Source: Rhodoferax sp. UBA5149 (lineage in GTDB: Bacteria > Pseudomonadota > Gammaproteobacteria > Burkholderiales > Burkholderiaceae_C). Taken from it: DNA of 46,550 nt. The stretch spans positions 1 to 46,550 of the forward strand of contig NZ_DHXT01000043.1 in assembly GCF_002413825.1 (NCBI RefSeq). The letters are read 5' to 3'. Positions within the stretch are counted from its first letter, which is position 1. Every line of letters begins with the position of its first letter. The position numbers and the translations under genes were made by a program. Positions 21,666-43,237 of this stretch are shown piece after piece. The notes under the pieces are model-generated. The model searched no databases. It was not told where the DNA came from and saw only the letters and a program-made list of their open reading frames with translations.

Positions 21666-22418
21666 TCAGACCTTGCGTCGACGGGATACGGCCAGAGCGG
21701 CAAGGGCCAGGCCGAAGAGGGCGAGGGAGGCGGGTTCGGGAATGGCATTGCCGAACACCTGTACATTCACGTCTGAGGACTTGTCCCAGCCTCCACCTGG
21801 GTCGCTCGAACTCCACGCCCCGACACTGAGCGGGTCGACTACACCACCAAGAACATTTGCGAAAAGCATCAGGTTGTCTGCCCCATCTTGCGGCGATCCA
21901 CTCAATGCGGCGTTGGACGCATGAACAAATGGAACAGAGGTACCTTGCCCAGAGGCGGCAGAACCAGTTCCATCAAGGAAGAAGTCATAAGTTTGGCCGG
22001 CTCCCAATGTAATATTGACGGCAAAATCGATCTGGTGCATGGCAATCATCGAGCCAGAGCTGCCTTGGTACAGGCTTGAGCTTGGATCCGCGTAAGTTGC
22101 GTCCGATATGACGCCAATGGTTGAACCATCAACGCCACCCCGAAGAACCGTCGTGTCAGTTTTGCCTACCGTCCACAGCCGAATCAAGTCGATGTTCCAT
22201 GTTTGCAAGCTTGTATTTGTAAAAGTATCGCCAACCAACCAGTAGTCAGGCGACGTGTATGCCGAAAATGCCCAAGCAACATTGGAGCGGTTGGAGCCGG
22301 CGACGTTGTTCAAGTTGGCCGTCGGCAAACCCCGATCCACGAGCAACGGCGCAGCGATGACGGTGCCGGAGAGCGCGGCGGTCAGCAGCGCGACAGTAAT
22401 ACATGATGATCGAAACAT
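21666..22418 (-). CDS. PEP-CTERM protein-sorting domain protein
   Basis: Signal peptide; Ser/Thr/Gly-rich body; C-terminal IPEPASLALFGLALAALAVSRRRKV; CAGGAG RBS. Confidence 0.95.
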   Translation of the reverse strand: MFRSSCITVALLTAALSGTVIAAPLLVDRGLPTANLNNVAGSNRSNVAWAFSAYTSPDYWLVGDTFTNTSLQTWNIDLIRLWTVGKTDTTVLRGGVDGSTIGVISDATYADPSSSLYQGSSGSMIAMHQIDFAVNITLGAGQTYDFFLDGTGSAASGQGTSVPFVHASNAALSGSPQDGADNLMLFANVLGGVVDPLSVGAWSSSDPGGGWDKSSDVNVQVFGNAIPEPASLALFGLALAALAVSRRRKV

Positions 22419-22471
22419 TGAGGTCTCCTGGTATGGGTTACCCAAAAAATAGGGGTGCCGTAACAAAATGT

Positions 22472-22518
22472 TGCACGATGTGTGCCACATATTCAGGAAA
22501 ATCTGCAAGTCATTGTTT
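22472..22518 (-). promoter_or_regulatory. Sigma54 promoter and IHF-like site of the PEP-CTERM gene
   Basis: Minus strand TGGCACACATCGTGCA (GG-N10-GC, 22487-22472); AAACAATGACTTG (22518-22506) resembles WATCAANNNNTTR. Confidence 0.8.
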
Positions 22519-37709: not shown

Positions 37710-37803
37710 TGTCGATATTTCTTACATTCGTTGATCTGCTTGCGCATATTTAAAGAAATATTTATACAAATCAATAACTTAATTCTTAGGCATGAAATAT
37801 GCG
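37710..37803 (+). promoter_or_regulatory. Enhancer box + IHF site + sigma54 promoter for the downstream operon
   Basis: TGTCGATATTTCTTACA (37710-37726); exact IHF consensus AATCAATAACTTA (37769-37781); GG-CATGAAATAT-GC (37789-37802). Confidence 0.75.
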
Positions 37804-37955
37804 TATGTATTGCATCATGGGGGTAAGGCAAGCTCAGGATGCCTGGGAACTCCTTTGGAAAAGGCCGACATGGATATCTGTCATGTGGTGCATGTGTGCG
37901 AGCGGAGAGTTCGATCGGATTTCATCCCGCGGACATGAATTAGTGAGGTAAGTTT

Positions 37956-38684
37956 ATGAGCGAAATTGAAAAAAAAATAGATGCGGGGTTTGACGAGGTG
38001 ACCGTGCCCACTACGGCTTTGCCTCCTATTGCGTCTCCGTCCCGGCGTCGACTCATCAAGTTGGGGACAGCGGCTGTTCCTATTGTGGCCACGCTGGCTA
38101 GTCGACCAGCTCTCGCTTGGCATTGCCAAAGTCCGTCGGCTTGGGGATCCGAACAGATCAATCCCAATACCAGTCTGAAGCATGGTGTCGCGCATAAGTC
38201 GTATATCGATGAAACATGGACGATAAATAATTGGAAAACGAACACACCACGAACTTCTGTTGATCTTGCGACTGGTGTTGATGCTGGAGCGCCTTGGAAC
38301 GAACTGTGCGTTGCGTGCCCCACGCTGTTGACTATCCCTGCGTGCAATTCAAAGCATAGAAACAAGAGTGTTTTTGACTACACAAAGGTGACAGTGGGGC
38401 ATCTTGTGACTTGTGGCTTTATTAATCCTGGATTTTCCACTACCTTGCTTGTGAAAGATGTGCCAACCGGCACCTATGGCACGCAGCCCAAGACTTACGC
38501 CCTTATTGGCCAGTTGAACTATGCTGTACTGAAGAAAGCCAGGTTCAAAAATGACATCGATAGTTGTCTTAGAGACGGTCAATTGGAATCAATGATCGCA
38601 GGGACCTTCGATGGGGGTGACGGGAAGTGGACTCTAACGAAGGTAAGTGAGTATCTTTTCAATAACTGGGTTGTGACCCCTTAG
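37956..38684 (+). CDS. Hypothetical protein with Tat-like leader, 6 Cys, Thr/Ser-rich
   Basis: GAGG RBS; SRRRLIKLG...PIVATLASRPALA-WHCQSPSAWGS. Confidence 0.75.
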   Translation: MSEIEKKIDAGFDEVTVPTTALPPIASPSRRRLIKLGTAAVPIVATLASRPALAWHCQSPSAWGSEQINPNTSLKHGVAHKSYIDETWTINNWKTNTPRTSVDLATGVDAGAPWNELCVACPTLLTIPACNSKHRNKSVFDYTKVTVGHLVTCGFINPGFSTTLLVKDVPTGTYGTQPKTYALIGQLNYAVLKKARFKNDIDSCLRDGQLESMIAGTFDGGDGKWTLTKVSEYLFNNWVVTP

Positions 38685-38722
38685 CGGAGCTTGGTGGTGA
38701 GAATCAAACATTACTGGGTGTT

Positions 38723-39025
38723 GTGGAAAAAGGCCAATTGAATTTCTGGTCTTCTTTGTCCAATGGGGTGTTGCAGTTCTGTGGTTGGGATGATGATGAA
38801 TTGTCGGTGGTATACAACATTGTCACAGGAGATACGCACCTGATTAGTTCAATCGACGTTGAATTGTTACAACGACTCTCAAAATCATCGTGTACGACGG
38901 GGGCGCTGGCGGGAGAGCTTGCCGGGTTGTTTTCGGAAGCGGAACATGCAGTGGTCGTGGAGTTCCTTGATGCCACTTTGCTTCGGTTGCAAACGGTTGG
39001 CCTCGTTACTGTCTCTCCACATTGA
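38723..39025 (+). CDS. HPr-rel-A system PqqD-family (RRE-like) protein (TIGR04353-like)
   Basis: 100 aa; WDDDELSVVYNIVTGDTHLIS beta hairpins followed by helices ending LQTVGLV; directly upstream of the kinase. Confidence 0.8.
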   Translation: MEKGQLNFWSSLSNGVLQFCGWDDDELSVVYNIVTGDTHLISSIDVELLQRLSKSSCTTGALAGELAGLFSEAEHAVVVEFLDATLLRLQTVGLVTVSPH

Positions 39026-39936
39026 AAATAGCTGAATTCACCACGTCGCAACTCGCCAGTTCGCTTCGTCGAAGCGAACTCCTGTTAACTGTGGGCCCCT
39101 TTGTCGCACGAATTAAGAGCAATGTGACGTCTCTTGCCACCGACATCGCACTGATGTATGCAGATTTTGACGTTTGTTCAGTTGACGCGTTTGCCGATTT
39201 CCACATAGAGGTTGCCCGTGAAACCGGCTTGCGACGCTGGATCAAACCCCAAGTTCGGTTTTTCTTTGATGGCCAACCTTCCTTCATTCCCTTGCCTGCT
39301 GCCCAGGCATTTGCCATGCTGGAGTGGGGGCTCAACTGGTGTGTGGCTGCCCATTGCCACCAGTATTTGATCATTCACGCGGCAGTGATCGAAAAAGAAG
39401 GGAAGGCTGCGTTACTACCCGCCCCACCCGGGTCCGGGAAAAGTACTTTGTGCACTGGCTTGGTCATGCGGGGATGGCGTCTGCTTTCGGACGAATTGGC
39501 TCTTTATGACATGGAGGGTGGCATGATCTATGGCATGTCTCGGCCGATCAATTTGAAAAATAAATCAATTGACGTCATTAAACAATTTGCACCATCTGCC
39601 GTGATGACGGCCTCAGTGCCCGATACCACCAAAGGCACGGTGGCTTTGTTGCGTCCGCCATTGAACAGCGTCTTGCGTGCTAACGAACCGGTGCGGCCTT
39701 CATGGATTATTTTGCCCAAGTATTCACCTGATGCGCGCCCTGATCTGGCGCCGTATAGCCGCGCGCGCACATGTATGCTGATTGCTGAGCAGTCTTTCAA
39801 CTACGACGTCCAGGGCGTGCGCGGCTTCGAGGCGATTGGGAAATTGGTAGACCAAAGTCAGTGTTACCAGTTGACTTATAGCCAGCTTGACGATGCCCAA
39901 CGAATTTTTGAAGAACTACTGGCGGGAGGGGGATGA
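39022..39936 (+). CDS. HprK-related kinase A (TIGR04352-like)
   Basis: LEWGLNW, IIHAAVIE, Walker A APPGSGKST, LLSDE, RPINLKN, TTKGTV. Confidence 0.9.
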   Translation: MKIAEFTTSQLASSLRRSELLLTVGPFVARIKSNVTSLATDIALMYADFDVCSVDAFADFHIEVARETGLRRWIKPQVRFFFDGQPSFIPLPAAQAFAMLEWGLNWCVAAHCHQYLIIHAAVIEKEGKAALLPAPPGSGKSTLCTGLVMRGWRLLSDELALYDMEGGMIYGMSRPINLKNKSIDVIKQFAPSAVMTASVPDTTKGTVALLRPPLNSVLRANEPVRPSWIILPKYSPDARPDLAPYSRARTCMLIAEQSFNYDVQGVRGFEAIGKLVDQSQCYQLTYSQLDDAQRIFEELLAGGG

Positions 39937-41051
39937 CTCCAAAATGTGATTCGATTGTCATGGCTCTGCTGAGTCCGCAATCACTGTGTCACTTGTCTGC
40001 GCTGGAATGGGACTTGCTGATTCGTCAGGGACGACGTGCAAATTTGTTGGCGCGTCTGGCGCACAAATTGACTCAAAACGGCTTGATAGATGCTATTCCC
40101 CTGGCTCCTCGCCACCACCTGACCTCTGCACTGAAAATGGCGCAACGACAGGAAACCGCCTTGCGCTGGGAGGTTGAGTGTATTGGCCAAGCCTTGACGG
40201 ATGCCGAGGTAAAGGTCGTTCTGCTCAAGGGCGCTGCGTATGTCATGGCCGATCTTGCCGCTGCGCATGGGCGGACTTTTTCGGATGTTGACATCATCGT
40301 ACCTAAGAAAAGACTGGGTCGCTGCGAAAGCGAGTTGATGATTCATGGCTGGCAGGGTTCACATCACGATGACTATGACCAGCGTTACTACCGTCGCTGG
40401 ATGCACGAAATACCTCCGATGCGTCACGTCAAGCGGGGAACGACCATTGATGTGCACCACACCATCCTGCCTGAGACCGCGCGCGTCAAAGTAAATACAA
40501 CGGCCTTGTTGACGGGCGTGGTTGCATTGCCGGGCCATACCAATTTGTATGTCCTGCAGCCCACAGACATGCTGCTACACAGCGCAACTCACCTTTTCCA
40601 TGAGGGAGACTTTGAGAAAGGACTTCGTGACCTGTTTGACCTGGACAGCCTGCTCAGGCAATTCGGTGACATGCACGGCTTTTGGGAGCAGCTCGTGCCG
40701 CGGGCGGCGGTGCTGGGATTGACACGACCACTGTATTACGCGTTGAGGTATACCACCTTGATGCTGGATACCCCCGTCCCCAGTCATGTGCTGGAACTGG
40801 CCCGAATTGGAAAACCGCCGCCGTTGGTAGGCCAGTTGATGGATGCCTGCTATTTGCGGGCTCTGCGACCAGTGCATGCAAGCACCAGCTCGCTGGGGAC
40901 CTGGCCCGCACGTTTCGCGTTGTATGTCCGATCACATTGGATCCGCATGCCATTCTTTTTGCTGGCCTACCATTTGGGGCGAAAGGCATTTATTCGACCA
41001 GAATCACACGATTTGGAAAAATCGATTGCTGACGTTGATTTGAAAGCCTGA
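39933..41051 (+). CDS. Nucleotidyltransferase family protein (NTP_transf_5-like)
   Basis: LLKGAAY...RTFSDVDI, YYRRWMHEIPP, IDVHH, RSHWIRMP; ATGA overlap. Confidence 0.88.
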   Translation: MTPKCDSIVMALLSPQSLCHLSALEWDLLIRQGRRANLLARLAHKLTQNGLIDAIPLAPRHHLTSALKMAQRQETALRWEVECIGQALTDAEVKVVLLKGAAYVMADLAAAHGRTFSDVDIIVPKKRLGRCESELMIHGWQGSHHDDYDQRYYRRWMHEIPPMRHVKRGTTIDVHHTILPETARVKVNTTALLTGVVALPGHTNLYVLQPTDMLLHSATHLFHEGDFEKGLRDLFDLDSLLRQFGDMHGFWEQLVPRAAVLGLTRPLYYALRYTTLMLDTPVPSHVLELARIGKPPPLVGQLMDACYLRALRPVHASTSSLGTWPARFALYVRSHWIRMPFFLLAYHLGRKAFIRPESHDLEKSIADVDLKA

Positions 41052-41129
41052 TGGCATGCGTGCACAACGTGTGTCGTCGTGGGTAGGGCAACTCGTGTCC
41101 CTTGACTCGATTGCATGGAGGGTGAAAAG

Positions 41130-41900
41130 ATGAAATCCAGGCTGCTATTCATTGTTGTCGTGAATCTCTTTTTTGTCGGCCCGCTCAAGGCCGACATGTC
41201 CAGCACGATTGCCAAAGTCAAACCGTCGGTGGTCATAGTTGGCACTTACAAGAGCACAAACAGTCCGCGATTTACTTTGCGGGGCACGGGTTTCATTGTG
41301 GGCAACGGCAACCTGGTTATCACCAATGCCCATGTCCTTCCGCAACCCACAGAAGAGGGCGCCCAAGCCGCTTTGGTGATCCAGATCAGGGTTGGCAAAA
41401 ATGAACTTGAAATGCGACCAACGACGGTGCTCGAAGTGGACCCGATTCATGATCTGGTCCTGCTGCGTTTTGATGGGCCTGCAGCACCTGCGCTCAGCGT
41501 GCGTGATTCGGGCTCGGTTCAAGAAGGGCAAGCCATTGCCTTCATGGGGTTTCCGATTGGGGGGGCACTTGGTTTTTCCCCCGTGACGCACCGGGGTATG
41601 GTTTCTTCCATTACAGCGGCTGCGCTGCCCACCCCTTCCGCACAGCAACTCAATGAAAAAACAATACGCAGCCTGCGGGGCGGGGGCAGTTTCGATATCT
41701 TTCAGCTGGATGGCACGGCCTATCCCGGAAACAGTGGCGGTCCTTTGTTTGATCCGGACACGGGCGAGGTGCTTGGCGTTGTCAACATGGTTTTCATCAA
41801 AGGAACCCGGGAATCGGCGTTGACTCACCCGTCGGGGATCAGCTATGCCGTTCCATCCGTATTCATTCTGCAATTGTTGCAACGGGACAAGGCCAACTGA
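41130..41900 (+). CDS. Secreted trypsin-like (S1) serine protease
   Basis: Signal peptide; catalytic triad TNAHV / HDLVLL / GNSGGP; no PDZ domain. Confidence 0.9.
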   Translation: MKSRLLFIVVVNLFFVGPLKADMSSTIAKVKPSVVIVGTYKSTNSPRFTLRGTGFIVGNGNLVITNAHVLPQPTEEGAQAALVIQIRVGKNELEMRPTTVLEVDPIHDLVLLRFDGPAAPALSVRDSGSVQEGQAIAFMGFPIGGALGFSPVTHRGMVSSITAAALPTPSAQQLNEKTIRSLRGGGSFDIFQLDGTAYPGNSGGPLFDPDTGEVLGVVNMVFIKGTRESALTHPSGISYAVPSVFILQLLQRDKAN

Positions 41901-41923: not shown

Positions 41924-43237
41924 TCAATCCGTCAGAAATCGCGTGGCATTGTCCAGGTCTTCATGGGTGGTCCCCGACTTGAGCACGCTGACAAGTTTTC
42001 GCCAGGATAAATCAGATTCAACCAGCTTGAAACCGTAAAACCCGTGAGAGCCCTTGTGATTGCCACGTACGACCATGGCCTTCACGATCGATTTCTCCTC
42101 ACTCCCGAGTCGAATACTGGCTTCACCCCAAACGTTGGTGGGTAAGGGTGCTTTGGAATGCGCCAGAAAGCCATCGTCGGAAAACTCGACCACCCGCAGT
42201 GCATAGACCTCCGTCTTTTCAGGACTGATGACCGAGAAACTGCCCGGGCATTTGAGTGAATAGCGTTGATGCCTGCGCTGACGGATGCGGAAGTTGGACT
42301 CGGAAAAAATAACCGGCAGCACCTCTTTGTACTCGGGGAGGTTGTAGATGGAATGCAGCAGCCCCTTCTCTCTTTCATTTAAATTTTGAAAAGTATGGGT
42401 GCATTGGTTGAAAAAATAGTCGAGCAGATCCGGCGTCATCACCGGATCATTGGTTGTGAAGTAACGCCGACTTGGCATCACAATGTTGCGCAGCCTGGTC
42501 CGCAAAAAATACAGATAGAGATTCTTTCGCCTCGGCTTCTTCCCATAAACCCGTTTGAAGATTTCAGGGGCGACGTGCAGGTCAACGGAGGCCCCTACCG
42601 CCGGTGCGCCATTGGCGAAATCGTAGTTTTCAACTTCGTTTTCCGCCAATCTCTCAAAGAACAAAAGAGACTCGTACATTTCAATCCGGTTGGGATTGAC
42701 GGCGATCACAAGATGCCGGGTATCGAAGAACGTGGTGCAGTATTCATACATGAATTTCATCAGCGGAAACAGGATCGTCCCTCCGGTGTTCCTGAATTTT
42801 GGATGCACGGCAAGCGCAGACACCTCCGCAACCCGGCCTTTTTTCTCGCGAACTTCGTGCAAGTCAAAAATGGACTGCAAGGGAAAACCGAACACACTTT
42901 CGCGAATCAGCGAGATGGTCCCCACCACCTCGTCATCGTATTTGGCGCAGAGTGTGGTCGTGGTAGGCAGAGCGTGGTAAATGGTGACGCGCATGCCTGA
43001 CGGGTCGGGCCGCATGAAGCCGCTGCCAACGTAGGCATCATGCAGGAGCTTGAAACACGCTTGCAACTCTTCCCTCGTCTCCGCGATCTTGAGGACCAGG
43101 CGTTTGTCGGGTCGGGGGTCACAATCAACAAAAGACCGGTACACCGCAAATCGCAGGCTTCGCGGGAAGAAAGAAAATGCTTTCCGAAGTGTTTGATGCA
43201 AGAATCTTCTGGCGTCTGATGCACGTGGATTTTTCAT
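41924..43237 (-). CDS. FeeM-like N-acyl amino acid synthase (GNAT) fused to a C-terminal PilZ-like domain
   Basis: LLHDAYVGSG, VVGTISL, AEVSALA, LVIAVNP..YESLLFF, NGAPAV; then RRHQR and EFSDDG followed by a beta-barrel-like segment. Confidence 0.72.
   Translation of the reverse strand: MKNPRASDARRFLHQTLRKAFSFFPRSLRFAVYRSFVDCDPRPDKRLVLKIAETREELQACFKLLHDAYVGSGFMRPDPSGMRVTIYHALPTTTTLCAKYDDEVVGTISLIRESVFGFPLQSIFDLHEVREKKGRVAEVSALAVHPKFRNTGGTILFPLMKFMYEYCTTFFDTRHLVIAVNPNRIEMYESLLFFERLAENEVENYDFANGAPAVGASVDLHVAPEIFKRVYGKKPRRKNLYLYFLRTRLRNIVMPSRRYFTTNDPVMTPDLLDYFFNQCTHTFQNLNEREKGLLHSIYNLPEYKEVLPVIFSESNFRIRQRRHQRYSLKCPGSFSVISPEKTEVYALRVVEFSDDGFLAHSKAPLPTNVWGEASIRLGSEEKSIVKAMVVRGNHKGSHGFYGFKLVESDLSWRKLVSVLKSGTTHEDLDNATRFLTD

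Follow-up and report, generated by a model that had tools for sequence, protein, structure and literature searches.

We analysed a 46,550-nt stretch of DNA from Rhodoferax sp. UBA5149 (NCBI RefSeq assembly GCF_002413825.1, contig NZ_DHXT01000043.1; the window, in what follows), where an NCBIfam scan places prsK, prsR and prsT of an XrtA-type exopolysaccharide (EPS) locus upstream of a group of genes related to the HPr-rel-A system. An open reading frame (ORF) check of the window confirmed five ORFs on the forward strand at 37956-41900, encoding in order: 1) P1 (37956..38684), a 242-residue protein with a twin-arginine leader, a Ser/Cys motif and a predicted folded C-terminal domain, which is the predicted substrate; 2) a discrete RRE (the recognition element for RiPPs, peptides that are made on the ribosome and modified after translation) or PqqD-family chaperone of the HPr-rel-A type (38723..39025; TIGR04353); 3) an HprK-related kinase A (39022..39936; TIGR04352); 4) a Pol-beta-like NTP_transf_5 transferase (39933..41051; PF14907); and 5) a secreted-type trypsin-like protease (41115..41900; Trypsin_2), a neighbour that falls outside the core and whose likelier start, judging by a GGAGG site, is the ATG at 41130. 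The ORF coordinates thus bear out five co-oriented genes with overlaps among the middle three, as described in an initial annotation of this DNA, the RRE/kinase and kinase/transferase junctions being 4-nt overlaps (TTGA and ATGA). Equally well founded was the promoter placed by that annotation directly after prsT, comprising on the forward strand a 17-nt PEP-CTERM box of the TGT...TTACA type (37710..37726; Haft motif 1, a predicted PrsR site), an integration host factor (IHF)-like site (37769..37781) that matches exactly what we take to be the IHF consensus, and a sigma-54 -24/-12 site, GG-N10-GC (37787..37804), 62 nt after the box.

The first four of these genes constitute a conserved and widespread cassette. 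Our set of 120 kinase loci combined the top-ranking 80, by similarity, among at least 537 with 38 of the 51 remaining positives in a phylum sample and with two family genomes. Two genome samples were used alongside: the phylum sample of 401 Pseudomonadota genomes, 52 of them kinase-positive, and a family sample of 151 genomes with 32 kinase-positive. The 120 loci share ancestry and over-represent near relatives, which makes locus and genome counts non-independent. Among them, the transferase gene was found in 116, an RRE gene directly upstream of the kinase in 109 and a P1-like gene in 108. Among the 12 loci without an adjacent P1-like gene, six are contig ends, and five of the remaining six were searched (L067 was excluded); all five of these split genomes hold a P1-like gene elsewhere, which in G545, G466 and G296 lies directly before an RRE gene, away from the kinase. 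In the family sample, a P1 match at E<=1e-6 stands beside the kinase in 30/32 kinase-positive genomes, the other two being G031, where P1 was found by hand, and G094, where the kinase sits at a contig edge; the 119 kinase-negative genomes yielded no P1 match better than 7.6e-5, and f50-type P1 was found in 0/4 PrsK-positive, kinase-negative f50 genomes. P1 classes also cluster on a quick kinase tree of 102 rows (3 changes vs. 45.5 when shuffled), a result that speaks for co-inheritance only. The initial annotation had counted all five genes as one system; P1, RRE, kinase and transferase do travel together, but the protease is absent from 36 of the 52 kinase genomes of the phylum sample. Neighbours across the loci are mostly XrtA-type EPS genes, and in the Magnetococcales group the cassette stands among XrtA-type glycosyltransferase and amidotransferase genes; its constant association is with polysaccharide loci, f50 loci excepted. 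In the latter (L122-L128, L130) phoR/pst genes lie on one side of the cassette and phosphoglycolate phosphatase-glmU-glmS on the other, and those of the loci that were scanned have no PrsR box.

Comparative data suggest that P1, the first gene product and already the proposed substrate in the initial annotation, is probably the substrate of this cassette, given its linkage to RRE, kinase and transferase, the intact catalytic motifs, the precedents discussed below and a leader that is its most conserved part. Neither NCBIfam nor Pfam contains a model that matches P1; homologue searches returned 191 homologues, with 3717 cluster representatives at E<=0.001, and an ESM Atlas search returned unnamed clusters only. 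P1 has the look of a leader-directed substrate: conservation in a broad alignment is highest in the leader block (64%, vs. 22-38% across the mature domain), a pattern opposite to that of ordinary signal peptides. The leader core (residues 28-54; 38037..38117, forward strand) comprises RR-x-L-I-K, a hydrophobic stretch, P-x3-T-L-x-S-R-P and A-x-A, and is followed by residues 55-65 (38118..38150, same strand) with C57-x3-S61-x3-S65, the serines of which are candidate phospho-acceptors. Residues R30, R31, T46, L47, S49, P51, A54, C57, S61 and S65 are conserved at 98-100% among 120 homologues; in the 71-row alignment A1, C57, S61 and S65 each reach 97%, with S59 less conserved. For motif counts we used 112 P1 sequences, after removing duplicates (seven loci) and four ORFs that were broken or had a wrong start (L049, L054, L080, L096); the presence of RR in 112/112 is circular since RR served as the anchor, and the unbiased figure is the conservation among the 120 homologues. 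Three dissimilar mature parts, 116-270 residues from RR, carry the common leader, and conservation in distant clades shrinks to the leader plus a small number of Ser/Cys residues, on mature parts that are dissimilar and shorter. A motif of the form [ST]-[ACG]-hydrophobic-x-S was found just after the leader in 77/112 sequences, at the C-terminus in 23/112 and at either place in 98/112 (vs. 6% when shuffled), but the expression was composed after inspecting the sequences, and the motif is therefore only a lead. Poly-Gly spacers sometimes separate leader and serine motif, and 13 proteins of the Magnetococcales type share an invariant C-terminal S-C-W-x-S.

In an AlphaFold2 (AF2) model of P1, residues 1-80 have a predicted local distance difference test score (pLDDT) of ~50 and residues 81-242 mostly one of 70-98, predicting a disordered stretch of 80 residues followed by a folded domain. 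Foldseek gave no match for this fold at E<=0.001 and the best match, VIA, had a Z of 2.8, which is no demonstration of a new fold. The description of the first gene as Thr/Ser-rich holds in a mild form, these residues making up 18% of the mature part. The C-terminal module of P1 recurs in large proteins, with no matching Pfam family: it occurs twice in a 1295-residue ORF with SdrD_B repeats (L155:2-3889), and the 808-residue protein P0130 has six stretches matching it. With respect to export, P1 and 98/112 homologues pass what we take to be the rule for twin-arginine translocation (Tat) signals (RR-x-hydrophobic, an uncharged stretch, A-x-A), and TatC is present in 5/5 genomes tested, including this one. 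A complex prediction of the RRE with P1 residues 24-75 (score 0.02, mark 0.32), for which controls were not folded, is not used as evidence.

The two families that define the HPr-rel-A system of NCBIfam are both found here above their cut-offs and side by side (TIGR04353, 51.2 bits vs. 35 for the RRE; TIGR04352, 411.6 bits vs. 200 for the kinase), making the cassette a member of that system, to which P1 adds a family that has no model. The RRE profile gives weak matches, each spanning the greater part of the protein, to the solved RREs TbiB1 (5v1u, E 0.085), 9x90 and TfuB1 (6jx3). In the kinase, H119, G137-x-G139-K140-S141-T142 and D157-E158 are conserved at 98-100% in 119 rows, the P-loop is intact, and there is a weak alignment to HPr kinase 1jb1 (E 0.03). 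The transferase matches PF14907 with 203 bits, has K99, G100, D118, D120 and D173 invariant in 99 rows, and gave an AF2 model with pLDDT 92.9, whose nearest folds are MenT1 (Z 12.8, rmsd 2.9, 177 aligned), ANT(2'') 4xje (Z 10.4, rmsd 3.6, 161 aligned) and LnuA (Z 10.1), with FKRP at Z 6.2; Foldseek at E<=0.001 and a sequence search of the PDB gave no match. Judging from these residues, both kinase and transferase look active.

The initial annotation invoked HprK-like kinases that modify Ser together with nucleotidyltransferases in lasso clusters, and direct precedent for RRE-guided phosphorylation of Ser with a subsequent transferase step exists in linear polyphosphorylated peptide (LPP; PMC13381572) and lasso systems (PMC6993621, PMC10368454). 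Popov et al. (2026; PMC13381572) described LPP clusters in capsule loci of Bacillota, with an RRE, an HprK kinase, an NTP transferase and signal-peptidase-like leader removal, in which LppK polyphosphorylates Ser3; the supplement gives LppK the label TIGR04352, without a score. Shared with our cassette are the discrete RRE, HprK-like kinase and uncharacterised NTP transferase in one cluster within polysaccharide loci, precursors with a conserved N-terminus, a variable C-terminus (35-200 residues) and a conserved Ser near the core start, as in P1, and signal-peptidase-type cleavage, which for P1 is predicted. On the other hand, the LPP leader has a YxxP motif for RRE binding, whereas P1 leaders are twin-arginine with YxxP in 0/112, and the LPP cluster has a SipW-like peptidase and an MsbA-like exporter, whereas our cassette has none and is flanked by prsT, the trypsin-like protease and a FeeM-like gene. 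No peptidase of the SipW kind was found among 43 annotated recurrent neighbours, and an ABC-transporter group was found in only 10/120 loci. Also unlike LPP are the substrate with a predicted folded domain, the Pseudomonadota host and the sigma-54/PrsR promoter. Given the absence of YxxP and of a dedicated peptidase and exporter, we did not file the cassette as an LPP member, but we surmise by analogy that it parallels LPP in its working. The main text of PMC13381572 makes no mention of Pseudomonadota or twin-arginine leaders, and within the reach of our search, beyond which lie most subscription papers and bioRxiv supplements, no paper on the cassette was found and none named TIGR04352 or TIGR04353 in its main text or assigned a Pseudomonadota substrate. 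The earlier label of an undescribed system needs narrowing, since the same enzyme trio has been shown to work in the LPP clusters of Bacillota.

Lasso peptide tailoring (PadeK; PsmK/PsmN, PMC6993621; BsfK/BsfB1/BsfN, PMC10368454; reviewed in PMC8498205) likewise shares with our cassette an HprK-like Ser kinase, an RRE, there in the role of a booster (BsfB1 strongly boosts BsfK; PMC10368454), and a Pol-beta-like, ANT(2'')-like transferase with DxD. PsmN was modelled on ANT(2'') 4xje, has an essential DxD and is required for adding a hexose (+162 Da) to phospho-Ser (PMC6993621); the same 4xje is among the top fold matches of our transferase. However, lasso clusters need a macrolactam synthetase, a B2 peptidase and a short precursor, none of which is found in the five genes or flanks, while P1 has 242 residues and ends in Thr-Pro; a lasso peptide cluster was accordingly rejected.

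Three family genomes harbor a sister cassette comprising a PqqD gene, a peptide of 50-74 residues (L148:6786-6938, L149:2453-2677 and L150:4140-4313, all on the reverse strand) and a kinase, distantly HprK-like, whose score falls short of the TIGR04352 cut-off, with a divergently read PF14907 gene shown in two of the three (L149 and L150). The leaders of these sister precursors combine RR and YxxP with the P-x3-T-L spacing of P1, A-K-A and a Ser at +2, and, when scored with the P1 leader profile, reach 25.6-33.5 bits, vs. at most 18.0 for other ORFs of the Rhodoferax genome; an unrelated RR-bearing protein from G015 scores 20.3 bits. The additions of this analysis are the exclusion of the protease, the relocated serine motif and a sister cassette uniting RR and YxxP in one leader.

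Building on the observed gene linkage, profile matches, conservation, intact active sites and promoter sequence, we infer the biochemical steps, the export and the role of the cassette as follows. The RRE would bind the twin-arginine leader of P1 in the cytoplasm, whereupon the kinase would phosphorylate a conserved serine, with S61 and S65 as the best candidates, and the transferase would cap the phospho-serine with a hexose before export; P1 would then leave by Tat, with a housekeeping signal peptidase cutting at A-x-A, after A54. Acting as both export signal and RRE tag, the leader would hold back export until P1 is modified, and the product, a phospho-glycosylated protein of the periplasm or matrix, would be made alongside exopolysaccharide, here under predicted PrsR/sigma-54 control. 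For the entire chain, from RRE-leader binding through Ser phosphorylation and the hexose cap to Tat export, we judge the chances to be slightly better than even. More tentatively, we speculate that in a widespread proteobacterial route a Tat signal doubles as a RiPP leader, the RRE holding the signal, gating export and recruiting the kinase and a Pol-beta-fold transferase to phospho-glycosylate a folded matrix protein, with the acceptor motif after the leader or far C-terminal, and with the hybrid RR/YxxP leaders of the sister cassette linking Tat signals to lasso-type leaders. The analysis names a concrete candidate substrate, with its serines, for two catalogued but uncharacterised families that occur in 52/401 sampled Pseudomonadota genomes, many of them floc- or biofilm-forming. 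If our proposal is true, RiPP logic would extend to folded, Tat-exported proteins, a tractable system for asking what NTP_transf_5 enzymes transfer would be at hand, and the matrix of bacteria from activated sludge and sediment would gain a phospho-glycoprotein candidate; a portable leader, tagging and exporting its cargo, could also serve as an engineering tool.

Several observations weigh against this proposal. Besides the dependence among loci and the after-the-fact composition of the serine expression, 14/112 P1 sequences lack the serine motif, P-x3-T-L is retained in just 64/112 leaders, and [YW]xxP, which characterised discrete RREs use, is found in 0/112 leaders. As for Tat, 14/112 leaders fail the rule and P1 matches neither TIGR01409 nor the Pfam Tat model. 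Two of the split genomes show looser arrangements, with P1 ~163 kb from the RRE-kinase-transferase trio in G429, and with P1, RRE and kinase on three separate contigs in G248. Finally, the nearest solved folds of the transferase transfer a nucleoside monophosphate (NMP) and not a sugar, deletion of lppN was without effect in a heterologous host (PMC13381572), and the pseudomycoidin authors kept the option that PsmN may only produce a donor (PMC6993621).

The main rival to a sugar cap retains the same substrate and phosphorylation but has the transferase add an NMP or phospho-polyol to the phospho-serine, or only supply a glycosyltransferase encoded in the EPS locus with an activated donor. For it speak the donor-making option kept for PsmN, the NMP transferases MenT1, ANT(2'') and LnuA that head the fold matches ahead of FKRP, and a partner beyond the core cluster suspected by Popov et al. 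(PMC13381572); against it, the sole mass shift that we found reported for such enzymes is +162/+324 Da on phospho-Ser (PMC6993621). We regard this rival as unlikely, though worth serious consideration. Less probable still is that a sugar or other small molecule for exopolysaccharide is what kinase and transferase modify, with P1 and RRE as a separate Tat passenger and its chaperone. The position of the cassette among EPS genes and the three genomes in which kinase-transferase and P1-RRE are encoded apart would fit such a division of labor, but P1 and kinase profiles agree genome by genome even when unlinked, 20 of the 44 PrsK-positive EPS genomes of the phylum sample are without the cassette, RRE-linked HprK-like kinases in the literature consulted act on peptides, and a Pol-beta-like fold sets the transferase apart from the nearby sugar-1-phosphate nucleotidyltransferases.

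The initial annotation had the cassette wired into the PEP-CTERM regulon. In this genome the promoter is indeed present: motif 1 and the sigma-54 motif 2 stand upstream, PrsK/R/T are encoded, and the same box and sigma-54 site precede two PEP-CTERM genes, the regulation itself being predicted. The 62-nt spacer is close to the mean of 62.8 reported by Haft (2006; PMC1569441), and spacing, motifs and prsK-prsR-prsT adjacency are all shared with the PEP-CTERM/exosortase A regulon (PMC1569441; Aquincola floc genes, PMC9850573). A strict box occurs upstream of 55/109 P1-like genes (vs. 0.2% in shuffles) and an IHF-like site upstream of 17/109 (vs. 1.9%); the strict box was found in 0/12 of the Magnetococcales group and 0/4 of the f50/f88 loci. 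A sigma-70 promoter scan of the region gave 0 sites, and terminator-like sites were at chance level (9 vs. 7.7). Within the family the link is strong, PrsK being present in 31/32 kinase genomes and the kinase in 31/38 PrsK genomes. Across the phylum it is not general, because 28/52 kinase genomes are without PrsK, 27 of them in the Magnetococcales-named P1 group, and exosortase is absent from 3/3 Magnetococcales-group genomes tested; the regulon as a defining feature was hence rejected. Unlike the proteins of this regulon, P1 has no PEP-CTERM tail and no NCBIfam match, while the window ORF at 21666-22508 (reverse strand) matches TIGR02595. The latter PEP-CTERM protein also has a weak PepA-like match, and upstream of its gene is a TGT-N11-ACA box, although a strict sigma-54 match is absent at the usual distance.

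The box shared by the cassette and PEP-CTERM genes, together with the near-constant presence of PrsK in family kinase genomes, might be taken to mean that the enzymes modify other envelope proteins, e.g. Ser/Thr-rich PEP-CTERM proteins, with P1 as an adaptor or regulatory partner. Retention of the cassette in Magnetococcales-group genomes without PrsK or exosortase, and a search of this genome (83% complete) that found no second leader-bearing ORF, make this improbable, slightly more so than action on a small molecule.

The protease, with a Trypsin_2 match, invariant His, Asp and Ser and a signal peptide, had been taken for the last member of the system, a claim that fails on its distribution, which tracks PrsK and not the kinase. 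In the phylum sample, 23/23 protease-positive genomes are PrsK-positive and 7 of the 23 are without the kinase; among the 120 kinase loci, 6 have it immediately downstream in the same orientation and 90 lack it within the flanks examined. Of 34 family genomes, 17 have it 4-6 kb downstream of prsK without an intervening cassette, and 4, including this genome, have the cassette in between; the strict PrsR box precedes 1/28 protease genes. Because its distribution follows PrsK, we place the protease outside the system and rejected it as a core member; in the most economical scenario, an inferred order of events, the cassette entered between prsT and a protease linked to PrsK. That P1, once modified and exported, is cleaved by this protease, perhaps releasing a short modified peptide, is the least probable of the alternatives: its position after the transferase here, with signal peptide and intact triad, its presence somewhere in 29/32 family kinase genomes and the predicted flexibility of P1 residues 55-80 are set against the rare adjacency and the PrsK-linked distribution just given. 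The protease family, often right after prsT, matches no PEP-CTERM-specific NCBIfam model and is probably an uncatalogued component of PEP-CTERM loci.

Some further features deserve mention. Convergent with the protease is a FeeM-like N-acyl amino acid synthase gene (41924-43237, reverse strand), found near the cassette in seven loci. The segment 37001-39000 has the lowest G+C of the window (~0.50 vs. 0.51-0.64 elsewhere). An XrtA-system amidotransferase (TIGR03108, asparagine-synthase fold) is encoded near the transferase in 10 Magnetococcales-group loci, directly after it in one (L104:8198-10108), and scores far below the lasso cyclase cut-off. Extra P1 copies were also seen, namely two tandem P1-like genes in G077 (L154:2535-4553) and a second P1 and RRE pair on another contig in G300 (L172), and in G052 (C2, L157) a P1-like ORF and an RRE fragment are followed by a second kinase copy in pieces with stops, which looks decayed.

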